From NCBI GenBank assembly GCA_963842085.1, contig CAWJET010000002.1, positions 1 to 64,000 of the forward strand: a stretch of 64,000 nucleotides of DNA, in the 5' to 3' direction. The DNA is from an uncultured delta proteobacterium. Lineage in GTDB: Bacteria > Desulfobacterota > Binatia > Binatales > Binataceae. Each line of letters opens with the position of its first letter. Position 1 is the stretch's first letter. The translations under genes and the position numbers were made by a program. The notes beneath the pieces were generated by a model. The model ran no database searches and was not told the DNA's origin. It saw only the letters and a program-made list of their open reading frames with translations. Of this stretch, positions 12,755-23,960 are shown in pieces.

Positions 12755-12838
12755 TGGTGCGAGAGGGGGGACTTGAACCCCCACGCCTTGCGGCACCGGA
12801 TCCTAAGTCCGGCGCGTCTGCCGTTCCGCCACTCTCGC
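12755..12838 (-). tRNA. tRNA-Leu (anticodon TAG), CCA encoded
   Basis: GCGAGAG TGGCGGAACGGCAGACGC GCCGGA-CTTAGGA-TCCGG, long variable arm, GGTTCAAGTCC, CTCTCGC ACCA. Confidence 0.97.
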
Positions 12839-12840
12839 GT
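12800..12840. repeat. att direct repeat (41 bp) within the intact tRNA
   Basis: atcctaagtccggcgcgtctgccgttccgccactctcgcgt is identical to 23920-23960. Confidence 0.95.
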
Positions 12841-12886
12841 GCAGAGAAAGTCCTTGAAGATACTACGCTTTCCTGAGACAGGACAG

Positions 12887-14104
12887 TCATTGGGCCGCTA
12901 CCAAGGGGCTGACTTTAGCGTGACTTTGGCGTTTCTGGGAATTTTCGGCCGAATGGAACGCTGAAAGCTTGAGTGCGGCTTCCTGAAGCATCGCTGAATC
13001 CACGATGGCATATCGCCGGTACACAGCCTCGGTCTTGTGACCTGTCATCTTCATCGCGGCCGAGCGGGGAATACCTGCGCGTTCCAGATTCCTCACCGCG
13101 GTCCTGCGGAAGTCGTGCACGAGGCGCCCAGGTATCCCGGCATCCTTGCACGCACTCTTCCAGGCGCCGCGAAAGTCTTTGATGCGGCTGCCCGCGGCAG
13201 AGCGCCCACCGCCCGGCGGATGCACGAACACCCATGGAATGATCTGGCCGATCGCCCGTTCAATTTCACTGACGCGTTCCCGCTGCGCTTCCAGGATCGT
13301 TCGCAGTTCGGCTGTGAAGGGGAAATCGCGGCCCTCGCCGTTCTTTGACTCGCCGGGCTCGAGCCGCACCCATCCGCCACTGAAATCTACGTGGCGCCAC
13401 TGCCGGGTGAGTAATTCCGACTTTGTGCGCCATCCGGTGATATACGCGACGGCCGCAACGGGCTGCAGGTACTCGGGAAGGTGCGTCTGGATGGCGCGGT
13501 GCTGTTCCAGCTCGAAGAAGCCCTTGCGTGCGTTATCGACGTGGAGCATTGAGAACTCAGGGCGCGCGCCAACCTTGCCGTCTTTGGCCGCCAGCTGAAA
13601 TCCGCGGCGCAGGATGGCCATCTCGTAGTTCACGGTTGATGGCTTGGCGCCGGCGGTGAGCCGATGCGCGCGATAGGCCGTGACTCTGCTGGTCGTGATG
13701 TCGCGGGCCTTGCGCAAGCCTTGAAAAAATTCCCGCAGATGAGTCGCCGCATACGCTACCCGGTCGCCGCTGCGCTGGGAGTTCGCCTTGTAGTCGTCGC
13801 CGACCATCTTGAGCAGGTCATCGAGCGTCGTCTTGTCGAGGGTCGGACCGACCGGCAGGCCGCATGCCGCATCGCCGGTCTTCTTTTTCAGCAGCCGGAG
13901 CGCATCCGCCCGGTTCTCAGAGTGCGCGTTCTCCGACATGCGCTTGCCGTTGACGTGGTAGACGATCCACCAGGTCGCGCAGGTTCTACTCGCTTGCTTG
14001 CGCGCCTCTTCAGCCGATAGGCCATCGGCCAGGTATTTCGCGAGGGCTCGCTTGTCTACGTATTTCGGCTGATAGACGTTGCCGAGTCCGCGTGCGGCCT
14101 TCAT
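12887..14104 (-). CDS. Tyrosine recombinase/integrase of element B
   Basis: AYITGWRTKSELL (R), ESKNGEGR (K), HDFRRTAVRN (HxxR), MTGHKTEAVYRRY. Confidence 0.95.
   Translation of the reverse strand: MKAARGLGNVYQPKYVDKRALAKYLADGLSAEEARKQASRTCATWWIVYHVNGKRMSENAHSENRADALRLLKKKTGDAACGLPVGPTLDKTTLDDLLKMVGDDYKANSQRSGDRVAYAATHLREFFQGLRKARDITTSRVTAYRAHRLTAGAKPSTVNYEMAILRRGFQLAAKDGKVGARPEFSMLHVDNARKGFFELEQHRAIQTHLPEYLQPVAAVAYITGWRTKSELLTRQWRHVDFSGGWVRLEPGESKNGEGRDFPFTAELRTILEAQRERVSEIERAIGQIIPWVFVHPPGGGRSAAGSRIKDFRGAWKSACKDAGIPGRLVHDFRRTAVRNLERAGIPRSAAMKMTGHKTEAVYRRYAIVDSAMLQEAALKLSAFHSAENSQKRQSHAKVSPLVAAQ
12911..12930. repeat. GACTTT(A/G)GC tandem repeats, putative arm-type sites of element B
   Basis: gactttagc-gt-gactttggc; the same 9-mer recurs at 23712, 23772 and 23783, and inverted at 23678. 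Confidence 0.75.
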
Positions 14105-14280
14105 GATTTTTCCCCTTCCCGCGCAACCGGCGTCTTAAGATAGGCTTCGAGCGCGGTAGTGGTAACGTCCTGAAGCGTTCGCCGCTCTTTGATGGCGCGG
14201 ATCTTCGCGCGCTCGATCAGATTCTCCGGTAGTCGCAAGGTCGTCTTTGACATTGGCTGAGTCTCCCGCTGTGTTTTCAT
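14101..14280 (-). CDS. Ribbon-helix-helix regulator coupled to the integrase
   Basis: SKTTLRLPENLIERAKIRAIKERRTLQDVTTTALEAYL; ATGA overlap with the int start. Confidence 0.75.
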   Translation of the reverse strand: MKTQRETQPMSKTTLRLPENLIERAKIRAIKERRTLQDVTTTALEAYLKTPVAREGEKS

Positions 14281-14316
14281 ATATGGGATACTGCCATATA
14301 GCCACACTACCGTCAA
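14280..14316 (-). promoter_or_regulatory. Sigma70-like promoter with overlapping inverted repeat; leaderless RHH-int transcript
   Basis: Minus strand TTGACG-N17-CAGTAT-N7-ATG; inverted repeat TATATGG-N7-CCATATA at 14280-14300. Confidence 0.55.
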
Positions 14317-14666
14317 GCCCTCTGAGTCTCGCGCCAGCGACGGACCTCGGTTGCCGAAGCGGTCAGGGACTTGCGGGATGTCCGGCGAATGAAGCTCAGC
14401 TTCTTGGCGTGCCGAAATACCCAGCGCCGCGTCTGCCCCAGCTCGGCCGCGATTTCCTCCGCGTTCAAGGTGCGGTCCGGTTGGGCCGAATCGGGCTTCG
14501 CCTTGGTGGTCGTTACCGGAGTCGTCACCAGCCGCGCCCAACACAACGCCTTCAACTGCTCAAGCTGGCCGATGAGCGACGCGAGCTCTTGCGGGTTCAG
14601 CTCTGCGATCAGCGCCGGTGGCGGTAGGTAGCTCGCGAGTTCTGTGCCGTTGCCGTTCAGGCTCAA
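14313..14666 (-). CDS. Excisionase-like HTH protein
   Basis: TLNAEEIAAELGQTRRWVFRHAKKLSF...EVRRW; same architecture as 10835-11236. Confidence 0.6.
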   Translation of the reverse strand: MSLNGNGTELASYLPPPALIAELNPQELASLIGQLEQLKALCWARLVTTPVTTTKAKPDSAQPDRTLNAEEIAAELGQTRRWVFRHAKKLSFIRRTSRKSLTASATEVRRWRETQRA

Positions 14667-14797
14667 GTCGGTCCTATGTGCACCTCGACGAGTCCGGGGG
14701 CCAGCGCGATGCGCGGCGAAGGAGTAGCAACTCCGCGCGATCTACGCGTCGCGTGGACGAGACGCGCTGCCAGCCCCCGGGGTGGGAAACACCACAT

Positions 14798-14974
14798 TCA
14801 TTCGCCCGCGACCGACGCCGCGACCCAGCCGTGCTCCAGGAACGCGCGGACGTCCTTTTCGTCGTTTATGACCAGGTAGCCGCCAGCGGACGGCGTATAT
14901 GTCGCGCCGCTCGCGCCCTGGTACACGGTCGCCAAGCTCAGCCCGGTGGGCGGACTTAATGTAAAGGTTGCCAT
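14798..14974 (-). CDS. Small hypothetical protein
   Basis: 58 aa, GGGAGA SD before ATG. Confidence 0.5.
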   Translation of the reverse strand: MATFTLSPPTGLSLATVYQGASGATYTPSAGGYLVINDEKDVRAFLEHGWVAASVAGE

Positions 14975-14993
14975 TGTCGTTTCTCCCATTATG

Positions 14994-15590
14994 TTATGCG
15001 CCGAGCGCTCGCGCCGTCCGCACGCGCGCCGCCGCCAGCTCGGCATTCATAGGTTTGATAGCTTGCGCCATCGCGGCCTTGACGAGGCTGACGATGGCCG
15101 CGGCGTTGGTGAAGTTGCCAGCGCGCCCATCGGGAGCAACGCCATAGCTATCGGTCGAAGTGCTAAGCCTTCTGCCCGGATTTGCGGCAACGATCCGATA
15201 AGTGTTCGTCGCCAAGTCCCGCATCCGCGACTGCTGGTCGATCGTCAGCGGCGCGACGACCTCTTGCTCCAGCGTCTGCACGTCGGCATCGCTAAGTCCC
15301 GGCGAAGTCCGCGGCCGGCCAAACGGTGCGACCTGCGGCGTGCCGCCGAGCATCTCCTCGGGCGTGATCGGCGTCAGATCGGCGGCGCGCTTCATCAGGT
15401 GGCGGCCCGCCAAGTGTGTGCGAACAAGATCGAGTCCGCGCGAGCCTTTCTGGAAGCGCTCCAGATCGGGTTCTAGCGACCAGCGGCCGTCGCTGCCCAT
15501 TACGAGCTTCTGCCCTTTGCTGATTTCGGGAATCGCCTTGCTGGTTGGCAGCAGGTTCAGGCGCCGTAGAGCGTCTTCTGTTGTACTCAC
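14994..15590 (-). CDS. Hypothetical protein
   Basis: GTG start with GGAGG SD; co-directional with neighbours. Confidence 0.55.
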   Translation of the reverse strand: MSTTEDALRRLNLLPTSKAIPEISKGQKLVMGSDGRWSLEPDLERFQKGSRGLDLVRTHLAGRHLMKRAADLTPITPEEMLGGTPQVAPFGRPRTSPGLSDADVQTLEQEVVAPLTIDQQSRMRDLATNTYRIVAANPGRRLSTSTDSYGVAPDGRAGNFTNAAAIVSLVKAAMAQAIKPMNAELAAARVRTARALGA

Positions 15591-15625
15591 TTTCTTGTCC
15601 TCCGTCGTTTGTGACACATAAAAAA

Positions 15626-16264
15626 TTAAAGAGTTTCCACCGCATCGCGGGCGGCGAGTAGGCGCAGAACGTCGCCCTTCTTTTCTGTCAGCACGCGCCG
15701 CTCGAGGATGCTGAGCGAGCCGCTGGGCCGGCAATCTATTCCACCGGCTGAGTTTGCCGTGACGATCACGCCGCGCGCGGCCAGGGCGTTCAGGACGTCT
15801 TCGACGGAAGTGTTGGCGACTTGGTCGGCCACGCGCGCAGCAGCTTGCGCCTCCCGCTGCGCAGCTTCTTGAGCGCGACGCGCGGCTTCGGCTTTCTGCA
15901 GCGACCGCGCATGATCCGCGACGGTCTCAATTACATCTTTCAAGGCGGCCCGCCCCGTCGGGCTGTCGAGCAACACGGTCAGCATTTCGGAGAATGCCCG
16001 CTGCGCCAGGTCGTACAGCGGCCCGCGTTGCGTAACGTGCGCGGCAAGATCGATTGCGGCCTCAACGTCAACAGCGTGGCCCTTCAGTTGCTCGAACGAT
16101 GCGTGATTGCGCTCAAGGATGCCGGCGTCGGCCCCATTAAATCGGGCGCTTTGATCAATCGCCGAGAGCCATGCCGTAGGGCTGGCGTTTCGCCAACGGT
16201 TGCGCCACTGCGCGATCTCATTCAATAGCGCCAGGTTTGCCGGTACTGGTTTCTCTTCCATCAC
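15626..16264 (-). CDS. Hypothetical protein with C-terminal TubC_N-like domain
   Basis: VEDVLNALAARGVIVTA...PSGSLS..ERRVLTEKKGDVLRLL resembles the TubC N-terminal docking domain. Confidence 0.5.
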   Translation of the reverse strand: MMEEKPVPANLALLNEIAQWRNRWRNASPTAWLSAIDQSARFNGADAGILERNHASFEQLKGHAVDVEAAIDLAAHVTQRGPLYDLAQRAFSEMLTVLLDSPTGRAALKDVIETVADHARSLQKAEAARRAQEAAQREAQAAARVADQVANTSVEDVLNALAARGVIVTANSAGGIDCRPSGSLSILERRVLTEKKGDVLRLLAARDAVETL

Positions 16265-16492
16265 TCAGTCTCCTTCGTTGCTCACCGACAGAAATTTTTC
16301 CAGCTCTTGTCTAGGCACCAGTCGGCGCCGACCTGCGTGTACGGATCGCAGCTCGCCTGATTGCAACATGAGCCTAATTTTGCCCGGACTTAGGCCGAGC
16401 GCCGCCGCGGATTCGAGCATCGAGAAGGCCAGCCGCTCAACGCTGGGGGCTTCGCCGTGGATGCCTTTGTGTGGGTTCACTTTTATCGCCAT
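16265..16492 (-). CDS. Excisionase-family DNA-binding protein
   Basis: LAFSMLESAAALGLSPGKIRLMLQSGELRSVHAGRRRLVPRQELEKFL. Confidence 0.8.
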   Translation of the reverse strand: MAIKVNPHKGIHGEAPSVERLAFSMLESAAALGLSPGKIRLMLQSGELRSVHAGRRRLVPRQELEKFLSVSNEGD

Positions 16493-16550
16493 GTCTCTAA
16501 GTGTTCGCTCTGGCAAATTGAGGCTCAAGCCCCAGAAACTTTTTTCTTCG

Positions 16551-16904
16551 TTAGTGGAACGCAGGCTCCCCATCGCTTTCCTCGCGGTGGCCAGTCTCGA
16601 TCTCGATGAAGTTGACGCCCTTATGCTGCTGAATGACCAAGTTCCAGACGTGCCCGCAAGATTCGCCGTCGATAACGATGACCACAGCGCTGCGGCGCCA
16701 TCCAGAGGAGACCTCCTTTGCGTGCGTTCCCGGGTACACGCGCGCCTCGTGTTCATCGCAGCCCATGCGGGTGAAGATTTCGCGGATATGTGAACAGTCG
16801 TCGCCACACACCGGGCACGCGAGGGTGACGTGGTCGGTGTAGGCTTCCCCGCCGCTTAACCAACGGATTGTTTGATCGCGAGTTACTTTTTTACGTCCGT
16901 GCAT
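16551..16904 (-). CDS. Hypothetical Zn-ribbon protein
   Basis: LACPVCGDDCSH...ESCGH; AAGGAG SD. Confidence 0.55.
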   Translation of the reverse strand: MHGRKKVTRDQTIRWLSGGEAYTDHVTLACPVCGDDCSHIREIFTRMGCDEHEARVYPGTHAKEVSSGWRRSAVVIVIDGESCGHVWNLVIQQHKGVNFIEIETGHREESDGEPAFH

Positions 16905-16930
16905 GGTTGATCTCCTTGTACACCGGTAGT

Positions 16931-17074
16931 TCTTGCAGCCTTCCAAATACATCAATAAAACAAACAACTATTACTATGTAAAAAATAGAATCTATTTTTG
17001 CACTCTTGCAGAGTTGGAAGGGCAAGAATGCAACAATGCAAGAATGCAGAGGTATAGAGAGATCTTGCAGCCTT
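16931..17074. other. Putative replication origin (AT-rich core, palindrome, iteron-like repeats)
   Basis: AT-rich 16945-17000; AAAAATAGA-A-TCTATTTTT (16981-16999); GCAAGAATGCA twice; TCTTGCAG at 16931, ~17004 and 17063; directly downstream of the primase-helicase. Confidence 0.6.
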
Positions 17075-17079
17075 GGACC

Positions 17080-19065
17080 TCATTCGGGGGGCGTTCTCCT
17101 GTCGGCCGGCGGTAGGCTCAGCCACCATTTGCCATCCTCTTTGCTAGACCGGACGCACAGATCCTTCCTCGCGGTGTTCAAGGTTCGAATCGAAATGCCG
17201 GCCGCAACGGCCGCTGCATCGACTTCTTTCGATAGCACCGGGCCTTCGCCTAGCATCTCCACGAGAAGCTGGCGCGCATCGTCGCGCTCTCGTGACGGTC
17301 GACCGCGGCCGCGGCTCTCGCCATCCTGTTCGCGTTCGCGTGCGAGGATTCCCTTCAGGTCGTCGTCAATCGCGCCCTTGACCCAGACCAGGCTTCCGCG
17401 GTCCTCGTTCTCTAGTCCCACGACTCGATAGGCCAATCCCGACATAGTCGGTCCCACGTTGCACTTGCCGAAAACCATGAACACGCGACCGTTGCGCATC
17501 TCTTGCCAGTCGGGATCTTCGGGATCCTTCACGAAGCCCCAAACGGCGCGAGCCGCTGCCGGGAATGCGATCGAGCCGCTTACCTTATCCAGTGCATTGC
17601 CGCTGTTGCCGCTGCCCTTGTTAAAGTGGGTCACCGCCAAAATCGCGACACCCCGTCGCTCGGCTAACTCAGCCAAGGGGTCGAGCACTTCTGACCGCAT
17701 CTCGGCGTTGTTATAGGTATCGCGGGCGCGCGACATGTAGCCGGACACCGGATCGATTAGCACCATTTTCGTGTTCAGATACTTATCCAGCAGTCGTTCA
17801 AGCTGAGGCAGGTCTCGTAGCAGGCTGAAACTCCGGCGCACGATCTCACCGGCCTCGTTCGCCTCGCGGATTCGCTTGACTACTTTGACGCGAGTCAGGT
17901 CTGCGCCGAGAAGACGAAGGCGAGGCACGATAGTGCTATCCATTGTATCCTCGGCCGAGAACACGATGCTGTCGACCTTTAGGTCATTAGGACTTCCGTC
18001 AGGCCATTCAGACCCATTGCTTAGCCGGGCCACGACGTCGAGAGCCGCGAAGCTCTTTCCTACACCGGGGATACCGACGAACAGGGTCAACATGTCGAGG
18101 GGAATCCTGTGATGCCAGAGCCATTCAACGGGCCTCTCTTTAACCAATGAGGCGTCGAACACCTCGAGTCCAACGAGCGGCAGCTCGACCTTGCGCGCTA
18201 CCATCACCAGTGCGCCCCATTCGCTCTCGAAGCCGCCGGGATCGCCGAGGCACCTTAGGTGAAGCTCATTCGCGTCTTTGACCGCGGCTCCCGCCATCTC
18301 GACAACGCGGACCTCGCCGCCGTATTCGATCTGCGCTAGCCGGCCAATGCAGCCCTTCTCGAAGGTCTCACCGCCAGGATCATTCTCGCGAACGATGTAA
18401 ACTTTCGAGAAGTCTTGAATGTGCGCAGCCTGCAATATTTTCGTGTTCTCAACACCCGGGATGCCGACCGCAGCGATGCCGTGCAACCAGAGGCTGAGGG
18501 CATCGGACTCACCTTCGACGAGCACCAACTCGCGCACATCGGCCTTGTGCCAGCCGGCTATGCGCCAAATTCCGTAGGCTGAGATGGGCCCGTCGCCCTT
18601 GCTCCAGATAAACCGTGGCATCGCACCCTTCTCCATCGTGAGCCGGATGTGCTGGCGCGCAGCCTTCTGCCCATTCATTAGGAAGTGATGAAACGTGAGT
18701 GCGCCGTTACTCTCGGTCACGCCGTGCTGTAATAGGAAGTCGAGCTCTAGGCCCTTGGCCTTCGCGAATGCCTCGAGTGTTAAGCTCGGCCTCGGCTTTG
18801 GCGCCGTTGGCGCTGTGCCGTTGCCCTTGCCGCGCTGCTCGTAGAACAGATCTGCGAGTTTCAATCCCAACGCCGCCGTGATCGTCTCGGCCGTGCAGTT
18901 CGCGCCCTTGCAGTTCACAAGAATGCGATCATCGCCCCGGCTCACCGATAATGCCGGCGTTTTCGTATTGTCGTGCGCGGGACAGAACGCTAGCACTCCA
19001 TTTCCTGCTCGCTGCTTGCGGCCTGGAAGCTTGTCAACAAAGGTTTCAAACCTCACCGCCCGCAC
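17080..19065 (-). CDS. Primase-helicase (Zn-binding domain, TOPRIM, RecA/AAA_25 helicase)
   Basis: FCPAHDNTKTPALS, LVEGESDAL, ENDPGGE, Walker A GIPGVGKS, SAED, Walker B VLIDP, VTHFNK. Confidence 0.9.
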   Translation of the reverse strand: MRAVRFETFVDKLPGRKQRAGNGVLAFCPAHDNTKTPALSVSRGDDRILVNCKGANCTAETITAALGLKLADLFYEQRGKGNGTAPTAPKPRPSLTLEAFAKAKGLELDFLLQHGVTESNGALTFHHFLMNGQKAARQHIRLTMEKGAMPRFIWSKGDGPISAYGIWRIAGWHKADVRELVLVEGESDALSLWLHGIAAVGIPGVENTKILQAAHIQDFSKVYIVRENDPGGETFEKGCIGRLAQIEYGGEVRVVEMAGAAVKDANELHLRCLGDPGGFESEWGALVMVARKVELPLVGLEVFDASLVKERPVEWLWHHRIPLDMLTLFVGIPGVGKSFAALDVVARLSNGSEWPDGSPNDLKVDSIVFSAEDTMDSTIVPRLRLLGADLTRVKVVKRIREANEAGEIVRRSFSLLRDLPQLERLLDKYLNTKMVLIDPVSGYMSRARDTYNNAEMRSEVLDPLAELAERRGVAILAVTHFNKGSGNSGNALDKVSGSIAFPAAARAVWGFVKDPEDPDWQEMRNGRVFMVFGKCNVGPTMSGLAYRVVGLENEDRGSLVWVKGAIDDDLKGILAREREQDGESRGRGRPSRERDDARQLLVEMLGEGPVLSKEVDAAAVAAGISIRTLNTARKDLCVRSSKEDGKWWLSLPPADRRTPPE

Positions 19066-19252
19066 CTCGCATCGTCACCGTGAGACCGGCCTGGCTCAGG
19101 GTGAAGGAAATCTGAAGGAGCAAGTCGCAGTCGCACGCGCGCGCACCGCACTCGGAGCACAGCAGGTATGCGGTATCGACGAACGGCAAGGATGGCTGAG
19201 CTATCTCACGGAGAGTGGCCTGTTCAGTGGTGGTCGCTGCCGCCCGTTTCAA
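19046..19252 (-). CDS. Small Cys-rich hypothetical protein
   Basis: LCSECGARACDC; overlaps both neighbours. Confidence 0.45.
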   Translation of the reverse strand: MKRAAATTTEQATLREIAQPSLPFVDTAYLLCSECGARACDCDLLLQISFTLSQAGLTVTMRGAGGEV

Positions 19253-19470
19253 CGTGATCGCTCCGCGGCGGATGCGCGCTCATCGAGCCACTTTGTGAGC
19301 GTCGAAAGCCGCCAGCCGATCGCGGTGCCACTATTGGAGAGTTTGAAGGGGGCTGGAAATTCGCCCTTTTTGATCCAATCGAGCAGGGTCATCCGGTGGA
19401 CGCCGGCGAAGCGCTCGACTTCGGGGAAGCGAACTATCCGGTCCGTTTCGGGGATCGTGAGTTTTCTCAT
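19249..19470 (-). CDS. alpA: AlpA-family phage regulator
   Basis: RIVRFPEVERFAGVHRMTLLDWIKKGEFPAPFKL....IGWRLSTLTKWL. Confidence 0.9.
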   Translation of the reverse strand: MRKLTIPETDRIVRFPEVERFAGVHRMTLLDWIKKGEFPAPFKLSNSGTAIGWRLSTLTKWLDERASAAERSR

Positions 19471-19752
19471 CGCGCTACCTCTTTGCTTCGGCAGCGCGAT
19501 CCAAAAAAAAACCGAGCGACCGAAGCGATAAAAATCAATCGCCTCAAAGCCCGCTCGATTTATTCGATACGGCCGAGTCCTTGCGGATCTCGGTCAGGGG
19601 CGCCCTTAACTGGGTTCGCCCTGATATGTTCTTACAAGATTAAGCTCTAGGAAATTGACACGCAAGACGGTGGCGGGGCGCAATCCACGCTGCACGCCAA
19701 GAGCACGAACGCGCTGTGCCCCAAGGGTTTCAGCACTTCTCCCTAACGACCG

Positions 19753-20148
19753 TTAGGCTTCGTCTTTTTTGGCTTTCGCGAGGATCTCGCGCACGCAGGC
19801 AGCGATAAGCTTCGGCGGCGTCGTCTCGCGCTCAGCCGCCAGGATTCTCAGTTGCCTTCGGTAAATCCCGGTCCCATGGCTGTGGACCGCGTGGCCGTGA
19901 GTCAATGGCGAGTAGCCGCGCCCGGAAGCGTTAACGTTTCGGATGCGCCGCTCGGCCAATTCATCGCGAAGGCATCCGCAACTCTGGGTTTTCCCGCGCG
20001 CCAAGCGTGAACCCGGAACGATTACGACCTTCCCGCATTCGCATCGACACCGCCATCGCGCGGGGCCGGTCTTGTCGTCGGCCCCGCGACCGGTAACTGT
20101 TAGTCGCCCATAGGTCTTGTCGGCACAATCGATGAACTTTCCCCTCAC
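19753..20148 (-). CDS. Phage protein with Cys-rich N-terminus of the AP2/HNH-associated type; no nuclease domain seen
   Basis: YGRLTV...WRCRCECG...L..GKTQSCGCL...THG. Confidence 0.6.
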   Translation of the reverse strand: MRGKFIDCADKTYGRLTVTGRGADDKTGPARWRCRCECGKVVIVPGSRLARGKTQSCGCLRDELAERRIRNVNASGRGYSPLTHGHAVHSHGTGIYRRQLRILAAERETTPPKLIAACVREILAKAKKDEA

Positions 20149-20154
20149 TCCCCA

Positions 20155-20340
20155 TTACCTCCAAAAGGTTTTTCCATCGTCACCCCTAGCCAAATATACC
20201 ATCGTAGTCCCCAATCGTCGCGCGCTCACGCAGCGCCGACATGTGTCCCTGCGCCCGTCCGGCTCAGAGCGCAGGTGCCCGAACAGGATCAGCGCCTTCA
20301 TCTGTCCGCACTCGCGGCAGCGCTTGGTTACTAACGTCAC
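20155..20340 (-). CDS. Small Zn-finger phage protein
   Basis: KRCRECGQMK...F...DGRRDTCRRC. Confidence 0.55.
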   Translation of the reverse strand: MTLVTKRCRECGQMKALILFGHLRSEPDGRRDTCRRCVSARRLGTTMVYLARGDDGKTFWR

Positions 20341-20344
20341 ACGC

Positions 20345-20704
20345 TCACTGCATCGGTCCTTCTGGGCTTCGCGAAAGAATCAACTGCGCTATTCGCGGCA
20401 GGCGCGTCGGCTCGGGATGCGCCGCCCTGCAGGGACCGCAGAGCGTGGCCAGGAAGTTCTCGTCGCTGAGAACGATCACCCAATCGCGAACGGCATGATT
20501 GACGTCAGAATCAGGCAGCCAGCGCGCCGCGCAGTTGTCGCACACCATGAAACCGGCTTGGCCCTTCGCGGCCGCCTTCTCGAATGCGAGGCGCAGACCG
20601 CTGGCCCGCGCCTCAGGCTCGTCAGCGCAGCTAGCGCAGAACCTTTGCCGCCACAATTTATCGAAGCGGTTAAGTTCGTCGAGCACGCTACGAAGTTCGA
20701 TCAT
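20345..20704 (-). CDS. Cys-rich hypothetical protein
   Basis: Three CxxC pairs; ATGA overlap with the terL stop. Confidence 0.55.
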   Translation of the reverse strand: MIELRSVLDELNRFDKLWRQRFCASCADEPEARASGLRLAFEKAAAKGQAGFMVCDNCAARWLPDSDVNHAVRDWVIVLSDENFLATLCGPCRAAHPEPTRLPRIAQLILSRSPEGPMQ

Positions 20705-22314
20705 GACTTCACCGCTACATTCACCGTAATCCGTTCGTAGCAGTCGCGATGAAATCTCTTGCGGCCCTCGTCAACGCCGGTGCCAATGACCTCACGGCGA
20801 CACACGGCACAAAGGTTCCGCAACCTGCGCCTTTCGTTGTCGTACTCGTCCTGCCAGGTGGTATCCGGCGGGCGTTCCGGCAGGCCGAGTGCTGCTCGTT
20901 CAGCGGCTTGACGAGTGAACTCGCGCACGCCCCAGCCGGCTCGTTCGTGATGCACCGCGGCCAGTGCGCTCATCGCCAGCGCGACCACCAGATCGATTTT
21001 CTTTCCGACACTCGGCTTGCCGATCTTGAAACCGCGCGGCGACTCGATGCCGACCGCGTTGCGAAGCGACTGGGCTAAATCAGGGTCCTCGTAGATCTCA
21101 ATGTTCCGGTCCTTGAACAAGCCCAGGAGATTTTCGCCCATCGCCGACAGGTTGCCGAGGGTTTGCGGAAATTCCTGCATGTCCACGCCGGCGTCCGTCA
21201 GTCGCTGGGCCAGCGCACTTAACTGCCACGGATCGTAGTTGACGCTCTGGAGCCAGAAACGATCCTTCAGCTCGAGCACGGCGCGCTCGATCGTGTTAGT
21301 GAAATCCAGCGGCTGACCCGGCGTGGGCTTCCATAGATAGTGCTTCACCAGCCGAACCTTCTGCCTTTCGTCGTCATAACTGGTCGCGACCACGGCGCAC
21401 CAGTCGTGCTTCGTCGACGCATCCACGCCGACAAAGACAGGCAGATTCGAATCGCCAAGACACGGCCGCAATTCAGGATTGGTGCACGCCTCGATCCATT
21501 CGTCTTGCAGGAAGTCGCCCTCGCCGCGGACCCATTTGTTCTCGATCATGCGGGCGAACTGATTGGGCCGTAGCGCCTGGCGCATCTCGCCGATCCAGCG
21601 CTCGCTCTGCCACGGCGCCCGGCATAGGTGCGTCCAGTAACAGAGCAGGCCATCGCTCCGGTAAAGGTCTGGACTGACTTCCTCGCCCGCGATCCCGCGC
21701 AGATAAAGCGACTCCAGAAGGTCCGACTCGTCCGTAAAGCCGGCATAGCTGACGGTCAACCTCGCCGACACCTTGCGAACCGGCGAGGGTACGGCTTCAT
21801 CCCACAGCCGGCGCGAACGCTCGGATACATATCCCCAGAGTTCGTCGAATATGCACAACGAGGGGTTGGCGCCCGCGAATGACGCGTAGTCGCTGGCCAC
21901 CGCCTGGATGAAGGAACCCGTCGATCGAAATTCGATTCTACCGGCGGTGATCTTCGCGCTATGACGTAGCAGTGGCGATCCCTCGATGATGCGCCGCGCA
22001 CTCTCGAACACCCGGCCGACGCTTTGCTCATAGTCGTTGCTGAGACAGTAGATTTCAGCCAGTGGGCCGCCGAGAACGACCGCCACGTAGATCGCAATCA
22101 TGCTGCCCAGCGCGCTTTTGCCGCCTTTTTTCGGACACGAGAAGATAAGTTCGGGGAACGGCAGCCTGCCATCCGCCGTCGGCGTCAGCGCGCGGCGTAG
22201 AAACTCGACCTGAGCCTCATACAACTCGAATGGCTTGCCGTTCTCTGGATTGATCAGAACATCGCGAATGAACGCGACCGGGTCAGCCTTCCATTCCTTC
22301 AGCTTGGCCCTCAT
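20701..22314 (-). CDS. terL: Terminase large subunit
   Basis: Walker A CPKKGGKS, Walker B CIFDELW, nuclease VGVDASTKHD, YDPWQ, KKIDLVVALAM; ATG 22314 overlaps the upstream TGA. Confidence 0.92.
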   Translation of the reverse strand: MRAKLKEWKADPVAFIRDVLINPENGKPFELYEAQVEFLRRALTPTADGRLPFPELIFSCPKKGGKSALGSMIAIYVAVVLGGPLAEIYCLSNDYEQSVGRVFESARRIIEGSPLLRHSAKITAGRIEFRSTGSFIQAVASDYASFAGANPSLCIFDELWGYVSERSRRLWDEAVPSPVRKVSARLTVSYAGFTDESDLLESLYLRGIAGEEVSPDLYRSDGLLCYWTHLCRAPWQSERWIGEMRQALRPNQFARMIENKWVRGEGDFLQDEWIEACTNPELRPCLGDSNLPVFVGVDASTKHDWCAVVATSYDDERQKVRLVKHYLWKPTPGQPLDFTNTIERAVLELKDRFWLQSVNYDPWQLSALAQRLTDAGVDMQEFPQTLGNLSAMGENLLGLFKDRNIEIYEDPDLAQSLRNAVGIESPRGFKIGKPSVGKKIDLVVALAMSALAAVHHERAGWGVREFTRQAAERAALGLPERPPDTTWQDEYDNERRRLRNLCAVCRREVIGTGVDEGRKRFHRDCYERITVNVAVKS

Positions 22315-22541
22315 GGTCGTCGCGCCTCTGCAGCCGTCTGCCGCTGGAATCGCCGCTGTTCTTCCTTGGCTCGACGGCGCTGGCTTTCGGCTCTTTTGCG
22401 CTTTCGGTGTTGGCTCGGTTTCTCGTAGAAAACATGGCGTTTCCACTCTCGAAAAATGCCTTCGTTCGCGAGCTTGCGCTTCAAAAGCAACAGCGCGCGA
22501 TCGATTCCGCGTGCGCTGTAGTCCGTGACCGTGACTTCCAC
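22311..22541 (-). CDS. rpsU: 30S ribosomal protein bS21 homologue
   Basis: GTG start after GGAGGTGGAGG; MEVTVTDYSARGIDRALLLLKRKLANEGIFREWKRHVFYEKPSQHRKRKRAESQRRR fits the bS21 pattern (AL...KRK....G....K....YEKPS..RKRK). Confidence 0.85.
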   Translation of the reverse strand: MEVTVTDYSARGIDRALLLLKRKLANEGIFREWKRHVFYEKPSQHRKRKRAESQRRRAKEEQRRFQRQTAAEARRP

Positions 22542-22668
22542 GCCTCCACCTCCACAACCTTGGAAATTCCAAAAAGGATCCGGCTCCGGCGTGCTCGCAC
22601 GTTCGATGCAACACAGCGCGGGGGTATTGCCGCGGCCCGAACGCCCGGATCCCGTTTTTCTATGCCTT

Positions 22669-22773
22669 CTATCGTTTGTCGCGCTTAGCCTGCCTGCGCG
22701 CTTCCTTACGGCGGCGCTTTTCTTCCTGCCGCTCACGCCGCGCTTTCTCGCGTGCCTTAGCCTCGACGTTCAT
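22669..22773 (-). CDS. 34-aa highly charged peptide, below the ORF-track cutoff
   Basis: MNVEAKAREKARRERQEEKRRRKEARRQAKRDKR; ATGA overlap with the upstream ORF. Confidence 0.45.
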   Translation of the reverse strand: MNVEAKAREKARRERQEEKRRRKEARRQAKRDKR

Positions 22774-22898
22774 GCCAGCCGATTCCCGTTCGTGTCGTTC
22801 ACAGTTTCGACGGTCGGATCGAGCAGCTTGACCAGCGCCGCAGTTGCCTCGCTGAGCGTGCGACCGTGAGCGATCGGATTGTCGAGTCCGCGCGCCAT
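22770..22898 (-). CDS. 42-aa hypothetical peptide
   Basis: MARGLDNPIAHGRTLSEATAALVKLLDPTVETVNDTNGNRLA; start and stop both overlap neighbours. Confidence 0.35.
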   Translation of the reverse strand: MARGLDNPIAHGRTLSEATAALVKLLDPTVETVNDTNGNRLA

Positions 22899-23152
22899 CA
22901 CATCACCCAAACGCCAGCGCCCTTGAGCGAGCGAACCTCGAATCGAACCTGATCGACATTCAAGCCAAGCGCGCGAAGCCCGGTCAGCCGTCGGGTTGAA
23001 GTAAACACGCCTCGGGCGCCGCTTGAGACTTCAACCGGCCAACCTATCGAGCGCGTGCGTCTAGCTGCGCCCCCCAGATGGCCCATTTTGCCGCCGTCCT
23101 GCGATTCTGGCCGTTCATAACGGGCGATCGAGCTAGTCGTCGTGTCATTCAT
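22898..23152 (-). CDS. Hypothetical protein
   Basis: ORF overlapping the terS stop. Confidence 0.4.
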   Translation of the reverse strand: MNDTTTSSIARYERPESQDGGKMGHLGGAARRTRSIGWPVEVSSGARGVFTSTRRLTGLRALGLNVDQVRFEVRSLKGAGVWVM

Positions 23153-23651
23153 CGGGTTTAATCTCCTGGGCACGTTGTGCGCGCTCTGCGGCCTTTACTT
23201 CCTTGCCGCCCGTTTCAACCGTTTCGGCATCCTCCGCAGTCGCCGCTATCGCGCCTGGCAGATCGAATGCGGTCCTTGAGCCGGTCGCCTTGATCGCCAT
23301 CCTGCTGGCCGGCGTCATTCCAAGTTCACGACTGTAGACGGCTTGAGCCAATCTCAACTTGCGATAGTCGTCGAGCAGGCGCTTGCCGTCGCCAGCGGCG
23401 TTCACGACGCTTCCAGCACGCAACACCGCGAAGACTTGCGTGGCTAAGACCTCAAGCTCGGCCCACGCCCTAACGGCCGGATAATCGCTAGGTTCAAGCC
23501 AAGTCAAAACGCTGCGAACCTTTCGGGCCAGCCGCTCGGTTTTCTTGTCCCTGAGCCGGTAGCCCGCAGAGGCCCGCACATAAAGGCCGGTGCTCGCGTG
23601 CTTCGACGCCGTCAGCTCTTTGCCGTTCTCGCTCATGTCCGGCTGGCTCAT
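23145..23651 (-). CDS. terS: Terminase small subunit, P27-family-like
   Basis: W.L...D...V..W.E...G.V....YSRELGMTPASRM motif; upstream of terL. Confidence 0.7.
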   Translation of the reverse strand: MSQPDMSENGKELTASKHASTGLYVRASAGYRLRDKKTERLARKVRSVLTWLEPSDYPAVRAWAELEVLATQVFAVLRAGSVVNAAGDGKRLLDDYRKLRLAQAVYSRELGMTPASRMAIKATGSRTAFDLPGAIAATAEDAETVETGGKEVKAAERAQRAQEIKPDE

Positions 23652-23677
23652 CGCGCCTCGCTCTCCGCGAAAGCCGC

Positions 23678-23791
23678 GCTAAAGTCGTTCATTTCGTCCA
23701 ATGAAATCAGGGACTTTAGCACACGCGCTGGATGTAGAATCCTGCGAACAAGGTAGGGCAGGGCGCCCGGCGACTTTAGCGTGACTTTAGC
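23678..23791. repeat. Four GACTTTAGC copies (one inverted), putative arm-type sites
   Basis: 23678-23686 (inverted), 23712-23720, 23772-23780, 23783-23791. Confidence 0.75.
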
Positions 23792-23846
23792 GGAACTATC
23801 GGCAAGAACGGGACGCAGGTGCACTATCGAGACTGCCCGATGGCGC

Positions 23847-23874
23847 AAAAGCCCAAGGATAGAGCCGATTGGGC
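23847..23874 (-). terminator. Possible weak intrinsic terminator between the half-tRNA and terS
   Basis: Minus strand GCCCAA-N12-TTGGGC-TTTT. Confidence 0.35.
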
Positions 23875-23919
23875 AGGTCTTGGGGGTTGATTGTGCAGAT
23901 GGCGACAGCGCTGGATTGA

Positions 23920-23960
23920 ATCCTAAGTCCGGCGCGTCTGCCGTTCCGCCACTCTCGCGT
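23920..23960 (-). repeat. att direct repeat: displaced 5' half of tRNA-Leu ending at the anticodon loop
   Basis: 41/41 identity with 12800-12840; sequence beyond the anticodon loop is not tRNA-like. Confidence 0.95.

Follow-up and report, generated by a model that had tools for sequence, protein, structure and literature searches.

We report on a window of 64,000 nucleotides (the whole stretch of DNA that was analysed, from the uncultured Binataceae contig CAWJET010000002.1), which carries an integrated island of about 11 kb. On this island, a gene for the ribosomal protein bS21 overlaps the start of terL, the gene for the large terminase, and we observed the same overlap in three further elements. 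The island gene is a true bS21 homologue, as confirmed by profile and structure-derived matches. Taken with its recurrence and selection, it is very probably a selected, functional bS21 paralogue of a mobile island with the anatomy described below. Our whole best explanation is that a functional, diverged bS21 paralogue is carried by tRNA-integrated islands resembling phage-inducible chromosomal islands (PICIs), and that it would exchange into host ribosomes; we give this a probability of roughly 0.45. Phage bS21 itself is known. What appears to be new here is a bS21 carried by an island of PICI size that has a terminase of its own but no capsid genes, and an overlap with terL that seems to have survived a change of TerL family.

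The island gene encodes bS21

The gene lies at 22311-22541 on the minus strand (coding strand GTG GAA GTC ... TGA) and encodes a very basic protein of 76 residues. A first-pass annotation, made from the letters alone, had pointed to this open reading frame (ORF) as a bS21 gene with a GGAGG Shine-Dalgarno (SD) sequence and a GTG start, and had proposed a search with PF01165. This search gave a significant match of 55.3 bits (E 5.4e-15, cut-off 27) that was almost full length (model positions 9-54 of 55). The assignment was also borne out by the NCBI equivalog TIGR00030 (56.7 bits, cut-off 28.95), by phrog_21469, 'ribosomal protein S21' (E 5.7e-13), and by 25 distinct bS21 sequences of solved ribosomes in the PDB (best E 1.3e-8, residues 3-66). 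The family-wide bS21 motifs that contact the ribosome were retained in the window protein.

Immediately 5' of the GTG, the coding strand reads GGAGGTGGAGGC, in which a tandem GGAGG forms the strongest SD of the island. The 3' end of the host 16S rRNA is ...GGATCACCTCCTTTCT, with the canonical CCUCC anti-SD present, and the host rpsU gene likewise carries GGAGG. The start is backed by the M/V-E-V N-terminus, which is kept in the copies of other elements, one of which has ATG where the window copy has GTG. A longer frame of 141 aa (22311-22736) was rejected as the true gene; N-terminal conservation begins only at M-E-V, and the longer frame brought no gain in the Pfam match over the 76-aa ORF. 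Between bS21 and the preceding 91-aa ORF (o91), we found no promoter-like site, no Rfam family and no excess of terminator-like sites, and besides the SD no conserved noncoding block was seen 5' of bS21.

bS21 and terL are translationally coupled

The stop codon of bS21 (TGA, 22313-22311) overlaps the start codon of terL (ATG, 22314-22312) as ATGA, with two bases common to both, just as the first-pass annotation had read it. A second ATGA (20704-20701) joins TerL to the 119-aa Cys-rich ORF (o119) that follows, whose ATG overlaps the TerL stop codon. TerL and o119 have no SD, each start sitting inside its overlap, and among these three genes the SD is found only at bS21. Since both junctions are ATGA and the sole SD stands at the first gene, bS21, TerL and o119 are predicted to form a translationally coupled string. 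By this layout, bS21 synthesis is predicted to be locked to synthesis of the island terminase.

The frequency of such SD sequences was estimated in a census of 427 long ORFs. GGAGG was present 5' of 3.7% of them (0.9% in control windows), and GGAG or GAGG 5' of 17% (7% in control windows). The census was crude (it took ORFs of 250 aa or more with only one possible ATG start, and used no gene finder) and gives a rough background only.

These observations could also be read in another manner. The bS21 cistron might be a strongly initiating leader that feeds ribosomes to terL, with the protein feeding back on its own extended SD as in the rpsU of Flavobacterium; if so, it would be the bS21 occupancy of the ribosome pool, and not global reprogramming, that determines how much terminase is made. 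The strong SD at bS21, the SD-less starts of TerL and o119, the rarity of GGAGG together with its presence at host rpsU, and an overlap kept in four elements even across TerL families (see below) are all consistent with such a role. There is also a precedent, since in Flavobacterium bS21 is reported to help hide the anti-SD and the extended-SD rpsU to be autoregulated (PMC9976891, PMC7797042, PMC13000453), in F. johnsoniae by ribosomes that have no bS21 (PMC9976891, PMC13000453). However, the Flavobacterium mechanism needs anti-SD sequestration, which is specific to Bacteroidia, and related islands have TerL directly after TerS without such a leader. Moreover, any short ORF would do as a leader, yet the bS21 sequence is under purifying selection. 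We consider this reading unlikely.

The junction recurs in other elements

The first-pass annotation had suggested looking for rpsU-terL adjacency in small att-bounded islands of metagenome-assembled genomes, and we found the same ATGA junction in three elements besides that of the window. The four distinct elements are those of the window, of a congeneric genome (G001, contig C51), of a genome from another genus of the same family (G268, contig C5 at 312 kb) and of a metagenome contig (L038). Two unrelated TerL families are represented among them: the window and L038 have PF03354/PF20441, and G001 and G268 have PF03237/PF17289.

The G001 element is syntenic with that of the window. Its order is terS, bS21, terL, o119, o61, AlpA, primase, a helix-turn-helix (HTH) gene, o212, o246 and then the integrase, which adjoins a tRNA-Gly. 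The AlpA protein is 81% identical to that of the window and the primase 47%, and the TerL is like the window TerL only in its last ~90 residues. In the first G268 element, which adjoins a tRNA-Lys, terS and bS21 are followed, with the ATGA overlap, by a PF03237-type TerL. On L038, o91 is followed by a bS21 that is 85% identical to that of G001, and then, via ATGA, by a window-type TerL (65% identity to the window TerL over the first 204 residues). A second G268 element has terS, a bS21 of 51-56 aa, a 758-nt gap with an opposite-strand ORF, and a window-type TerL. With this one included, bS21 lies between terS and terL in five elements. No attachment-site (att) repeat was found for the G001 and G268 elements.

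We estimated selection on the coupled copies from the pairwise ratio of nonsynonymous to synonymous change (dN/dS). The values were 0.16 (G001 vs L038), 0.20 (window vs L038) and 0.49 (window vs G001), and these point to purifying selection on the bS21 protein.

The distribution of PF01165 was examined in 47 genomes of the genus. A conserved rpsU scoring about 68 bits was present in 44 of them, and extra, lower-scoring copies were seen in the host genome (G000), G001, G004 and G062 (at a contig end). In a metagenome scan, 80 loci were obtained, of which L038, L040 and L042 alone gave the island query a better score than host rpsU. One of these three, L042, proved to be the G001 element, and the other 77 loci were host-type rpsU or too short for context. 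The extra copy of G004 (L024, G004:C8, 7845-10023) precedes a DUF5681 protein and a TIR-domain protein and lies ~4 kb 3' of a primase-helicase, a different context that is possibly defence-related.

As a separate observation, the G268 genome (95% complete, 8 contigs; G268:C5 gives loci L035 and L181) carries two bS21 islands, and its PF01165 hits, of only 37 and 33 bits, are both island copies. The family-typical rpsU, which scores about 68 bits elsewhere in the family, was not found in this genome by PF01165. This could be an assembly gap or a real loss.

A Cys-rich tail marks the TerLs that follow bS21

We observed a C-terminal CxxC...HxxC tail on all four intact TerLs that follow bS21 (the window, G001 and both G268 elements), and on none of eight TerLs without bS21. 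The tail can be aligned across the PF03354/PF20441 and PF03237/PF17289 families, with four metal-ligand-like positions invariant; between the window and G001 it is 48% identical over window TerL residues 441-528. When the window tail was searched in all 165 genomes of the family (E 1e-5), it was found in the host genome (the island and a remnant on contig C1) and in G001 alone. There is one counter-example, G036 (L010), where the tail occurs on a broken TerL and there is no bS21. On the simplest reading of these alignments, bS21 (upstream) and the tail (downstream) would be conserved flanks, with the TerL core swapped between them.

The association raises the question of whether this small basic protein has an extraribosomal role, as a nucleic-acid-binding packaging accessory of the terminase that possibly works with the Cys-rich tail. 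Its position between terS and terL in five elements, and a tail that accompanies it across two TerL families and is missing from eight relatives without bS21, would fit this role; a bS21 partner outside the ribosome, the OLE ribonucleoprotein, has also been reported (PMC12054373). Against it stand the tail-bearing (broken) TerL of G036, which has no bS21, the retention of the ribosome-contacting motifs and the near full-length Pfam match. The co-occurrence may, besides, simply mean that the flanking DNA has a common origin and that the TerL core was exchanged between the two flanks. A complex prediction of the tail with bS21 gave a score of 0.00, and as its controls were not folded, it speaks neither for nor against binding. 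We give such a role a slim chance.

The island bS21 has diverged from host rpsU

The host genome (G000, 100% complete, two contigs) has one further PF01165 locus, the chromosomal rpsU on contig C1. Over 53 aligned residues the window bS21 shares 53% identity with host rpsU, and it has a 4-residue insertion near its N-terminus. An identity this low argues that the window bS21 is not a recent capture. The first-pass annotation had reasoned that a copy nearly identical to host rpsU and absent from related elements would point to one-off capture; what we found is a diverged copy that recurs at the same position. When the window bS21 was compared by HMMER with 1.84 billion cluster representatives, the best non-self matches were 57-63% identical, the host-type rpsU group appearing at about 62%. 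A word-index protein search returned the window bS21's own cluster and the database protein P0005 alone.

The tree with host rpsU that had been called for was built by maximum likelihood (153 rows, 84 columns). Island-type copies were grouped with 78% support in the Shimodaira-Hasegawa-like approximate likelihood-ratio test (SH-aLRT) and the host-type group with 93%. No origin or donor was drawn from it, since there are too few columns to resolve these. P0001-P0004, P0006-P0009, P0013 and P0015 were left out of the tree; these comprised reads of the window itself, proteins that are not bS21, a second copy of the G001 sequence and two sequences with internal duplications.

P0005 itself is a mosaic bS21, with island-type N- and C-terminal blocks and a host-type middle. 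It has 20 positions in common with the window copy alone and 17 with host rpsU alone, in three blocks, which suggests recombination between island and chromosomal bS21 genes.

It could be argued that the gene is a captured rpsU hitch-hiking in a terS-terL recombination hot spot, with no function for the island. Most related islands have no bS21, one copy is shortened and uncoupled, and the P0005 mosaic points to exchange with chromosomal rpsU, as might be seen with such a passenger. However, the dN/dS values of 0.16-0.49, the deep divergence from host rpsU, and a start, SD and ATGA junction kept across two genera and two TerL families all speak for a retained function, and we regard a functionless passenger as very improbable.

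The island and its gene map

A perfect 41-nt direct repeat, at 12800-12840 and 23920-23960, brackets 11,161 bp. This repeat and the gene content agree with the first-pass description of an att-bounded element of ~11 kb without capsid genes. All assigned genes are on the minus strand (Table 1), and the gene list includes two small ORFs between HNH and TerL. Plus-strand ORFs of the island had no match in Pfam or PHROGs, and the same models recognised none of the island ORFs as a gene for capsid, portal, protease, tail or lysis. The longest unassigned ORFs, of 246 and 212 aa, had no Pfam or PHROG match, and none is long enough for a portal; o119 had no Pfam match. The window TerS-like protein falls below the Pfam cut-offs (PF23931 17.5 bits, PF05119 14.9 bits). 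PF05119 was matched by seven of its eight aligned homologues (best E 5e-8), and in relatives the TerS-like gene is directly 5' of terL.

Table 1. Features of the island and its borders (window coordinates).
Feature	Position	Strand	Evidence
tRNA-Leu(tag), 5' half inside left att copy	12755-12838	-	ARAGORN; Rfam RF00005 58.7 bits
Tyrosine integrase, 405 aa	12887-14104	-	PF00589 52.6 bits; phrog_1 E 1.1e-40
Arc-like/ribbon-helix-helix small regulator (weak assignment)	14101-14544	-	phrog_2639 E 6.6e-4
Two ORFs without assigned function, 246 aa (14994-15734) and 212 aa (15626-16264)	14994-16264	-	Homologues in G001 element
HTH_17 protein, excisionase/regulator-like	16265-16807	-	PF12728 31.3 bits; phrog_66
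Primase-helicase, 661 aa, Toprim + AAA_25	17080-19065	-	PF13481 94 bits; PF13155; phrog_239 E 1.5e-23
AlpA-family regulator, 73 aa	19249-19470	-	PF05930 39.6 bits (cut-off 21); 81% identical in G001 element
HNH endonuclease, 131 aa	19753-20148	-	phrog_374 E 2.3e-21
o119, Cys-rich ORF, 119 aa	20345-20704	-	Homologues 3' of TerL in L023, L026, L031, L036, L010
CxxC...HxxC C-terminal tail of TerL	20704-20952	-	Alignment; also L023 10707-10955, L035 11444-11692, L181 8383-10044 (C-terminus)
Large terminase TerL, 537 aa	20701-22314	-	phrog_9 E 1.2e-53; PF20441 43.3 bits and PF03354 27.8 bits, both above cut-off
bS21 paralogue, 76 aa, GTG start	22311-22541	-	PF01165, TIGR00030, phrog_21469, PDB matches
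Tandem SD GGAGG-T-GGAGG, 5' of bS21 start	22543-22553	-	Read from sequence
Lys/Arg-rich ORF, 34 aa, between o91 and bS21	22669-22773	-	Read from sequence
o91, 91-aa ORF	22898-23173	-	Homologues precede bS21 in L038, terL in L010 (G036)
TerS-like protein, 168 aa, P27/Terminase_4 type (weak)	23145-23651	-	PF23931 E 0.006
Right att copy, perfect repeat of 12800-12840	23920-23960		Direct-repeat search

A decayed prophage remnant was considered and rejected, as the att repeats are perfect, the genes intact, synteny extends across genera and selection is purifying. The att repeat copies the 5' half of the tRNA-Leu, and the integrase adjoins the 5' end of the tRNA; tRNA-targeting integrases usually duplicate the 3' part, and the orientation here looks unusual.

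Contigs of four soil DNA runs (two studies) cover the island and are identical to it in sequence, and none of them contained a joint across 12800-23960. A large joint from 14202 to 19947 in these contigs was disregarded, its shorter side being 20 letters. In runs X2 and X3, contig depth inside the island was below that of the right flank; depth is not a share of cells, and nothing was concluded from it.

Comparison with known satellites and phages

PICI components were tested with Pfam and PHROG models and a repeat search. Five core components make up the PICI scheme of SatelliteFinder (de Sousa et al. 2023, PMC10085698). The island has the integrase, the AlpA regulator and the primase-replicase, and its weak TerS-like protein is a candidate for a fourth, the small terminase. 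For the fifth, capsid morphogenesis, no island ORF gave a match. The island is like a PICI in its size of ~11 kb, its att integration and these components, with the small terminase as a candidate, and it has no tail, holin or portal gene. It differs by the added TerL and HNH, which are treated in that work as markers of capsid-forming PICIs (cfPICIs). Known PICIs are dominated by Proteobacteria and Firmicutes hosts, whereas the host of this island is outside both.

The island is like a cfPICI in having its own TerS-like protein, TerL (phrog_9) and HNH (phrog_374) beside an integrase-AlpA-primase module. However, what defines a cfPICI is a set of genes for capsid, portal, protease, head-tail adaptor and connector (PMC10085698), none of which was detected here, and with no capsid or portal gene cfPICI identity was rejected. 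We infer that the island is a PICI-like satellite; as no helper phage was identified, the satellite lifestyle is read from gene content.

Phage-encoded bS21 is reportedly described by Mizuno et al. 2019 and Al-Shayeb et al. 2020. That bS21 genes occur in phages near packaging genes, as stated in the first-pass annotation, is published: among 900 phage genomes, Chen et al. 2022 (PMC9723584) count 78 in which TerL is no more than ten genes away from bS21, with phage bS21 co-expressed with late structural genes. The island resembles these phages in having bS21 beside packaging or structural genes and in the presumed role of bS21 in late expression. The phage carriers are complete and often huge, with capsid, portal, protease and tail genes in the same genome, whereas here bS21 sits on an 11,161-bp integrative island without structural genes. 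In the five phage clades of that study, bS21 is opposite in strand to the structural genes; in the island it is co-directional with terL, its stop overlapping the terL start. The bS21 paralogues of Francisella tularensis (PMC13374519) are alike as extra copies that could alter ribosome selectivity. They are chromosomal and cell-regulated, whereas the island copy is mobile and tied to terminase translation.

We found no literature linking bS21 to phage satellites or chromosomal islands, supplements not being covered. The word 'ribosomal' is absent from the main text of the satellite census PMC10085698.

Evidence weighing against the explanation, and where bS21 is absent

Several results weigh against the explanation given at the outset. 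A purpose-built bS21 profile hidden Markov model, which recovers every known copy, found no bS21 in eight related TerS-TerL islands (~20 kb each), and none was found within 6 kb in 60 IMG/VR contigs with relatives of the G001-type TerL. The second G268 copy is shortened and stands 758 nt away from TerL, and no TerL was found next to the G004 copy. The bS21 tree holds the element copies together at 78% SH-aLRT only. The 100%-complete host genome had no match to PF05065 (HK97-type capsid) or PF04860 (portal), and hence a helper, if any, would be non-resident or have another capsid and portal. Finally, we read an SD-like motif at ~5 of 15 genes of the island, which is not notably SD-rich. This count, and the SD-less starts of TerL and the next gene, lend no support to the first-pass proposal that bS21 favours SD-led packaging mRNAs.

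Relatives of the window TerL (50-57% identical) were present in 9 of 36 other genomes sampled from the genus. In five of the eight loci without bS21 (L027, L028, L029, L030 and L033), a TerS homologue is directly 5' of terL. In G036 the order is terS, o91, a 340-nt gap and then the broken TerL, with no bS21. The gap holds only a small Lys/Arg-rich ORF; it lies at about 1280-1450 of L010 and is a Lys/Arg/Glu-rich ORF similar to the one between o91 and bS21 in the window.

Wider searches were also negative. Among 401 genomes of the class, the window protein found an island-type copy only in G000 and G268 (G001 and G004 were outside this draw). IMG/VR scans with the window bS21, P0012 and P0009 returned no close relative, and with the window TerL no pattern was matched. 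The window bS21 and the bS21 alignment found no close relative in 185,579 species genomes, and a tblastn search of 50,697 phage records with the window bS21 was negative at E 1e-3. From these absences, the island bS21 appears to be a rare accessory of one branch of the island family and not a family hallmark.

Other observations were made during these searches. At least about 39 of 301 genomes of a phylum sample had two or more PF01165 matches, among the matches listed; in some families this was so for nearly all members, and these look like lineage-wide bS21 paralogues. Locus L029 (G009:C6, 2448-19189) is an island of ~16.7 kb with a tRNA-Arg on one side and another tRNA-Arg-like copy on the other. 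Its genes include an integrase, TerS, TerL, one for a primase-like protein and an ORF with weak likeness to a ClpP/head protease, with no recognised capsid or portal, and in view of it TerS-TerL islands without capsid genes seem common in the genus. The host chromosome also has two remnants of related islands. At G000:C1:579458-579865 (L036), a TerL C-terminal fragment 88% identical to that of the window is followed by an o119 homologue, and at G000:C1:1277979-1278215 (L037) a TerS homologue is followed by a TerL N-terminal fragment.

Proposed role of the island bS21

bS21 is reported to sit at the 30S platform by the anti-SD helix, and its absence to disturb initiation (PMC9723584). Francisella has three bS21 paralogues, any one of which can be present in a given ribosome, and their effects are reported to be gene-specific (PMC13374519). 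For the bS21 paralogue of these islands, which are small, PICI-like, integrated at tRNA genes and found in a single family of soil bacteria, we propose the following. A helper phage would induce the island, and ribosomes ending bS21 would re-initiate on terL via the ATGA overlap, so that bS21 would be produced each time the packaging module is expressed and at no other time. The island bS21 would then swap into the host 30S subunit at the platform beside the anti-SD. The altered 30S would change mRNA initiation during packaging, either for the island or against the helper or the host, a direction that we leave unspecified. Incorporation into ribosomes and an effect on translation are inferred steps, and we hold ribosome retuning as a tentative mechanism, with the odds leaning somewhat against it.

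A neighbouring possibility is that the island bS21 is a tool of conflict, which sabotages helper translation or bypasses a translation-stalling host defence and does not boost the island's own mRNAs. Satellites commonly interfere with the late functions of their helper, and here bS21 expression is tied to the packaging module. Escape from translation-stalling defence was raised for phage bS21 by Chen et al. (PMC9723584). No helper or defence partner was identified, though, and this possibility shares with the ribosome-exchange explanation the requirement that bS21 be incorporated into ribosomes; we consider it quite unlikely.

The gene arrangement also allows a broader statement. A minimal-satellite lineage may have recruited a ribosomal protein into its packaging operon, with bS21, terminase and Cys-rich tail a co-inherited unit that was kept when the TerL core was exchanged for one of an unrelated family, and with bS21 either entering ribosomes or acting with the terminase when the helper is hijacked. 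In this full form, we find the statement doubtful.

Significance

Discussion of ribosomal proteins encoded by viruses has to date centred on large phages, in which such a gene is one of hundreds. On the 11-kb island the bS21 gene accounts for 2% of the length, and there is a physical tie between its translation and that of the terminase; for these reasons it is hard to dismiss as a passenger. The finding points to a satellite-like island type outside the well-studied phyla, with its own TerS-like protein, TerL and HNH and no capsid genes. It also offers a very small, tractable system of one operon and one overlap. Natural controls are at hand in the related islands without bS21 and in the one with an uncoupled, shortened copy, and with these it could be tested whether bS21 exchange changes translation. 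The comparisons suggest that minimal phage parasites, too, may tamper with the host ribosome. If this is true, ribosome specialisation would be a weapon in the conflict between satellites and their helpers, and not a feature of large phages alone.

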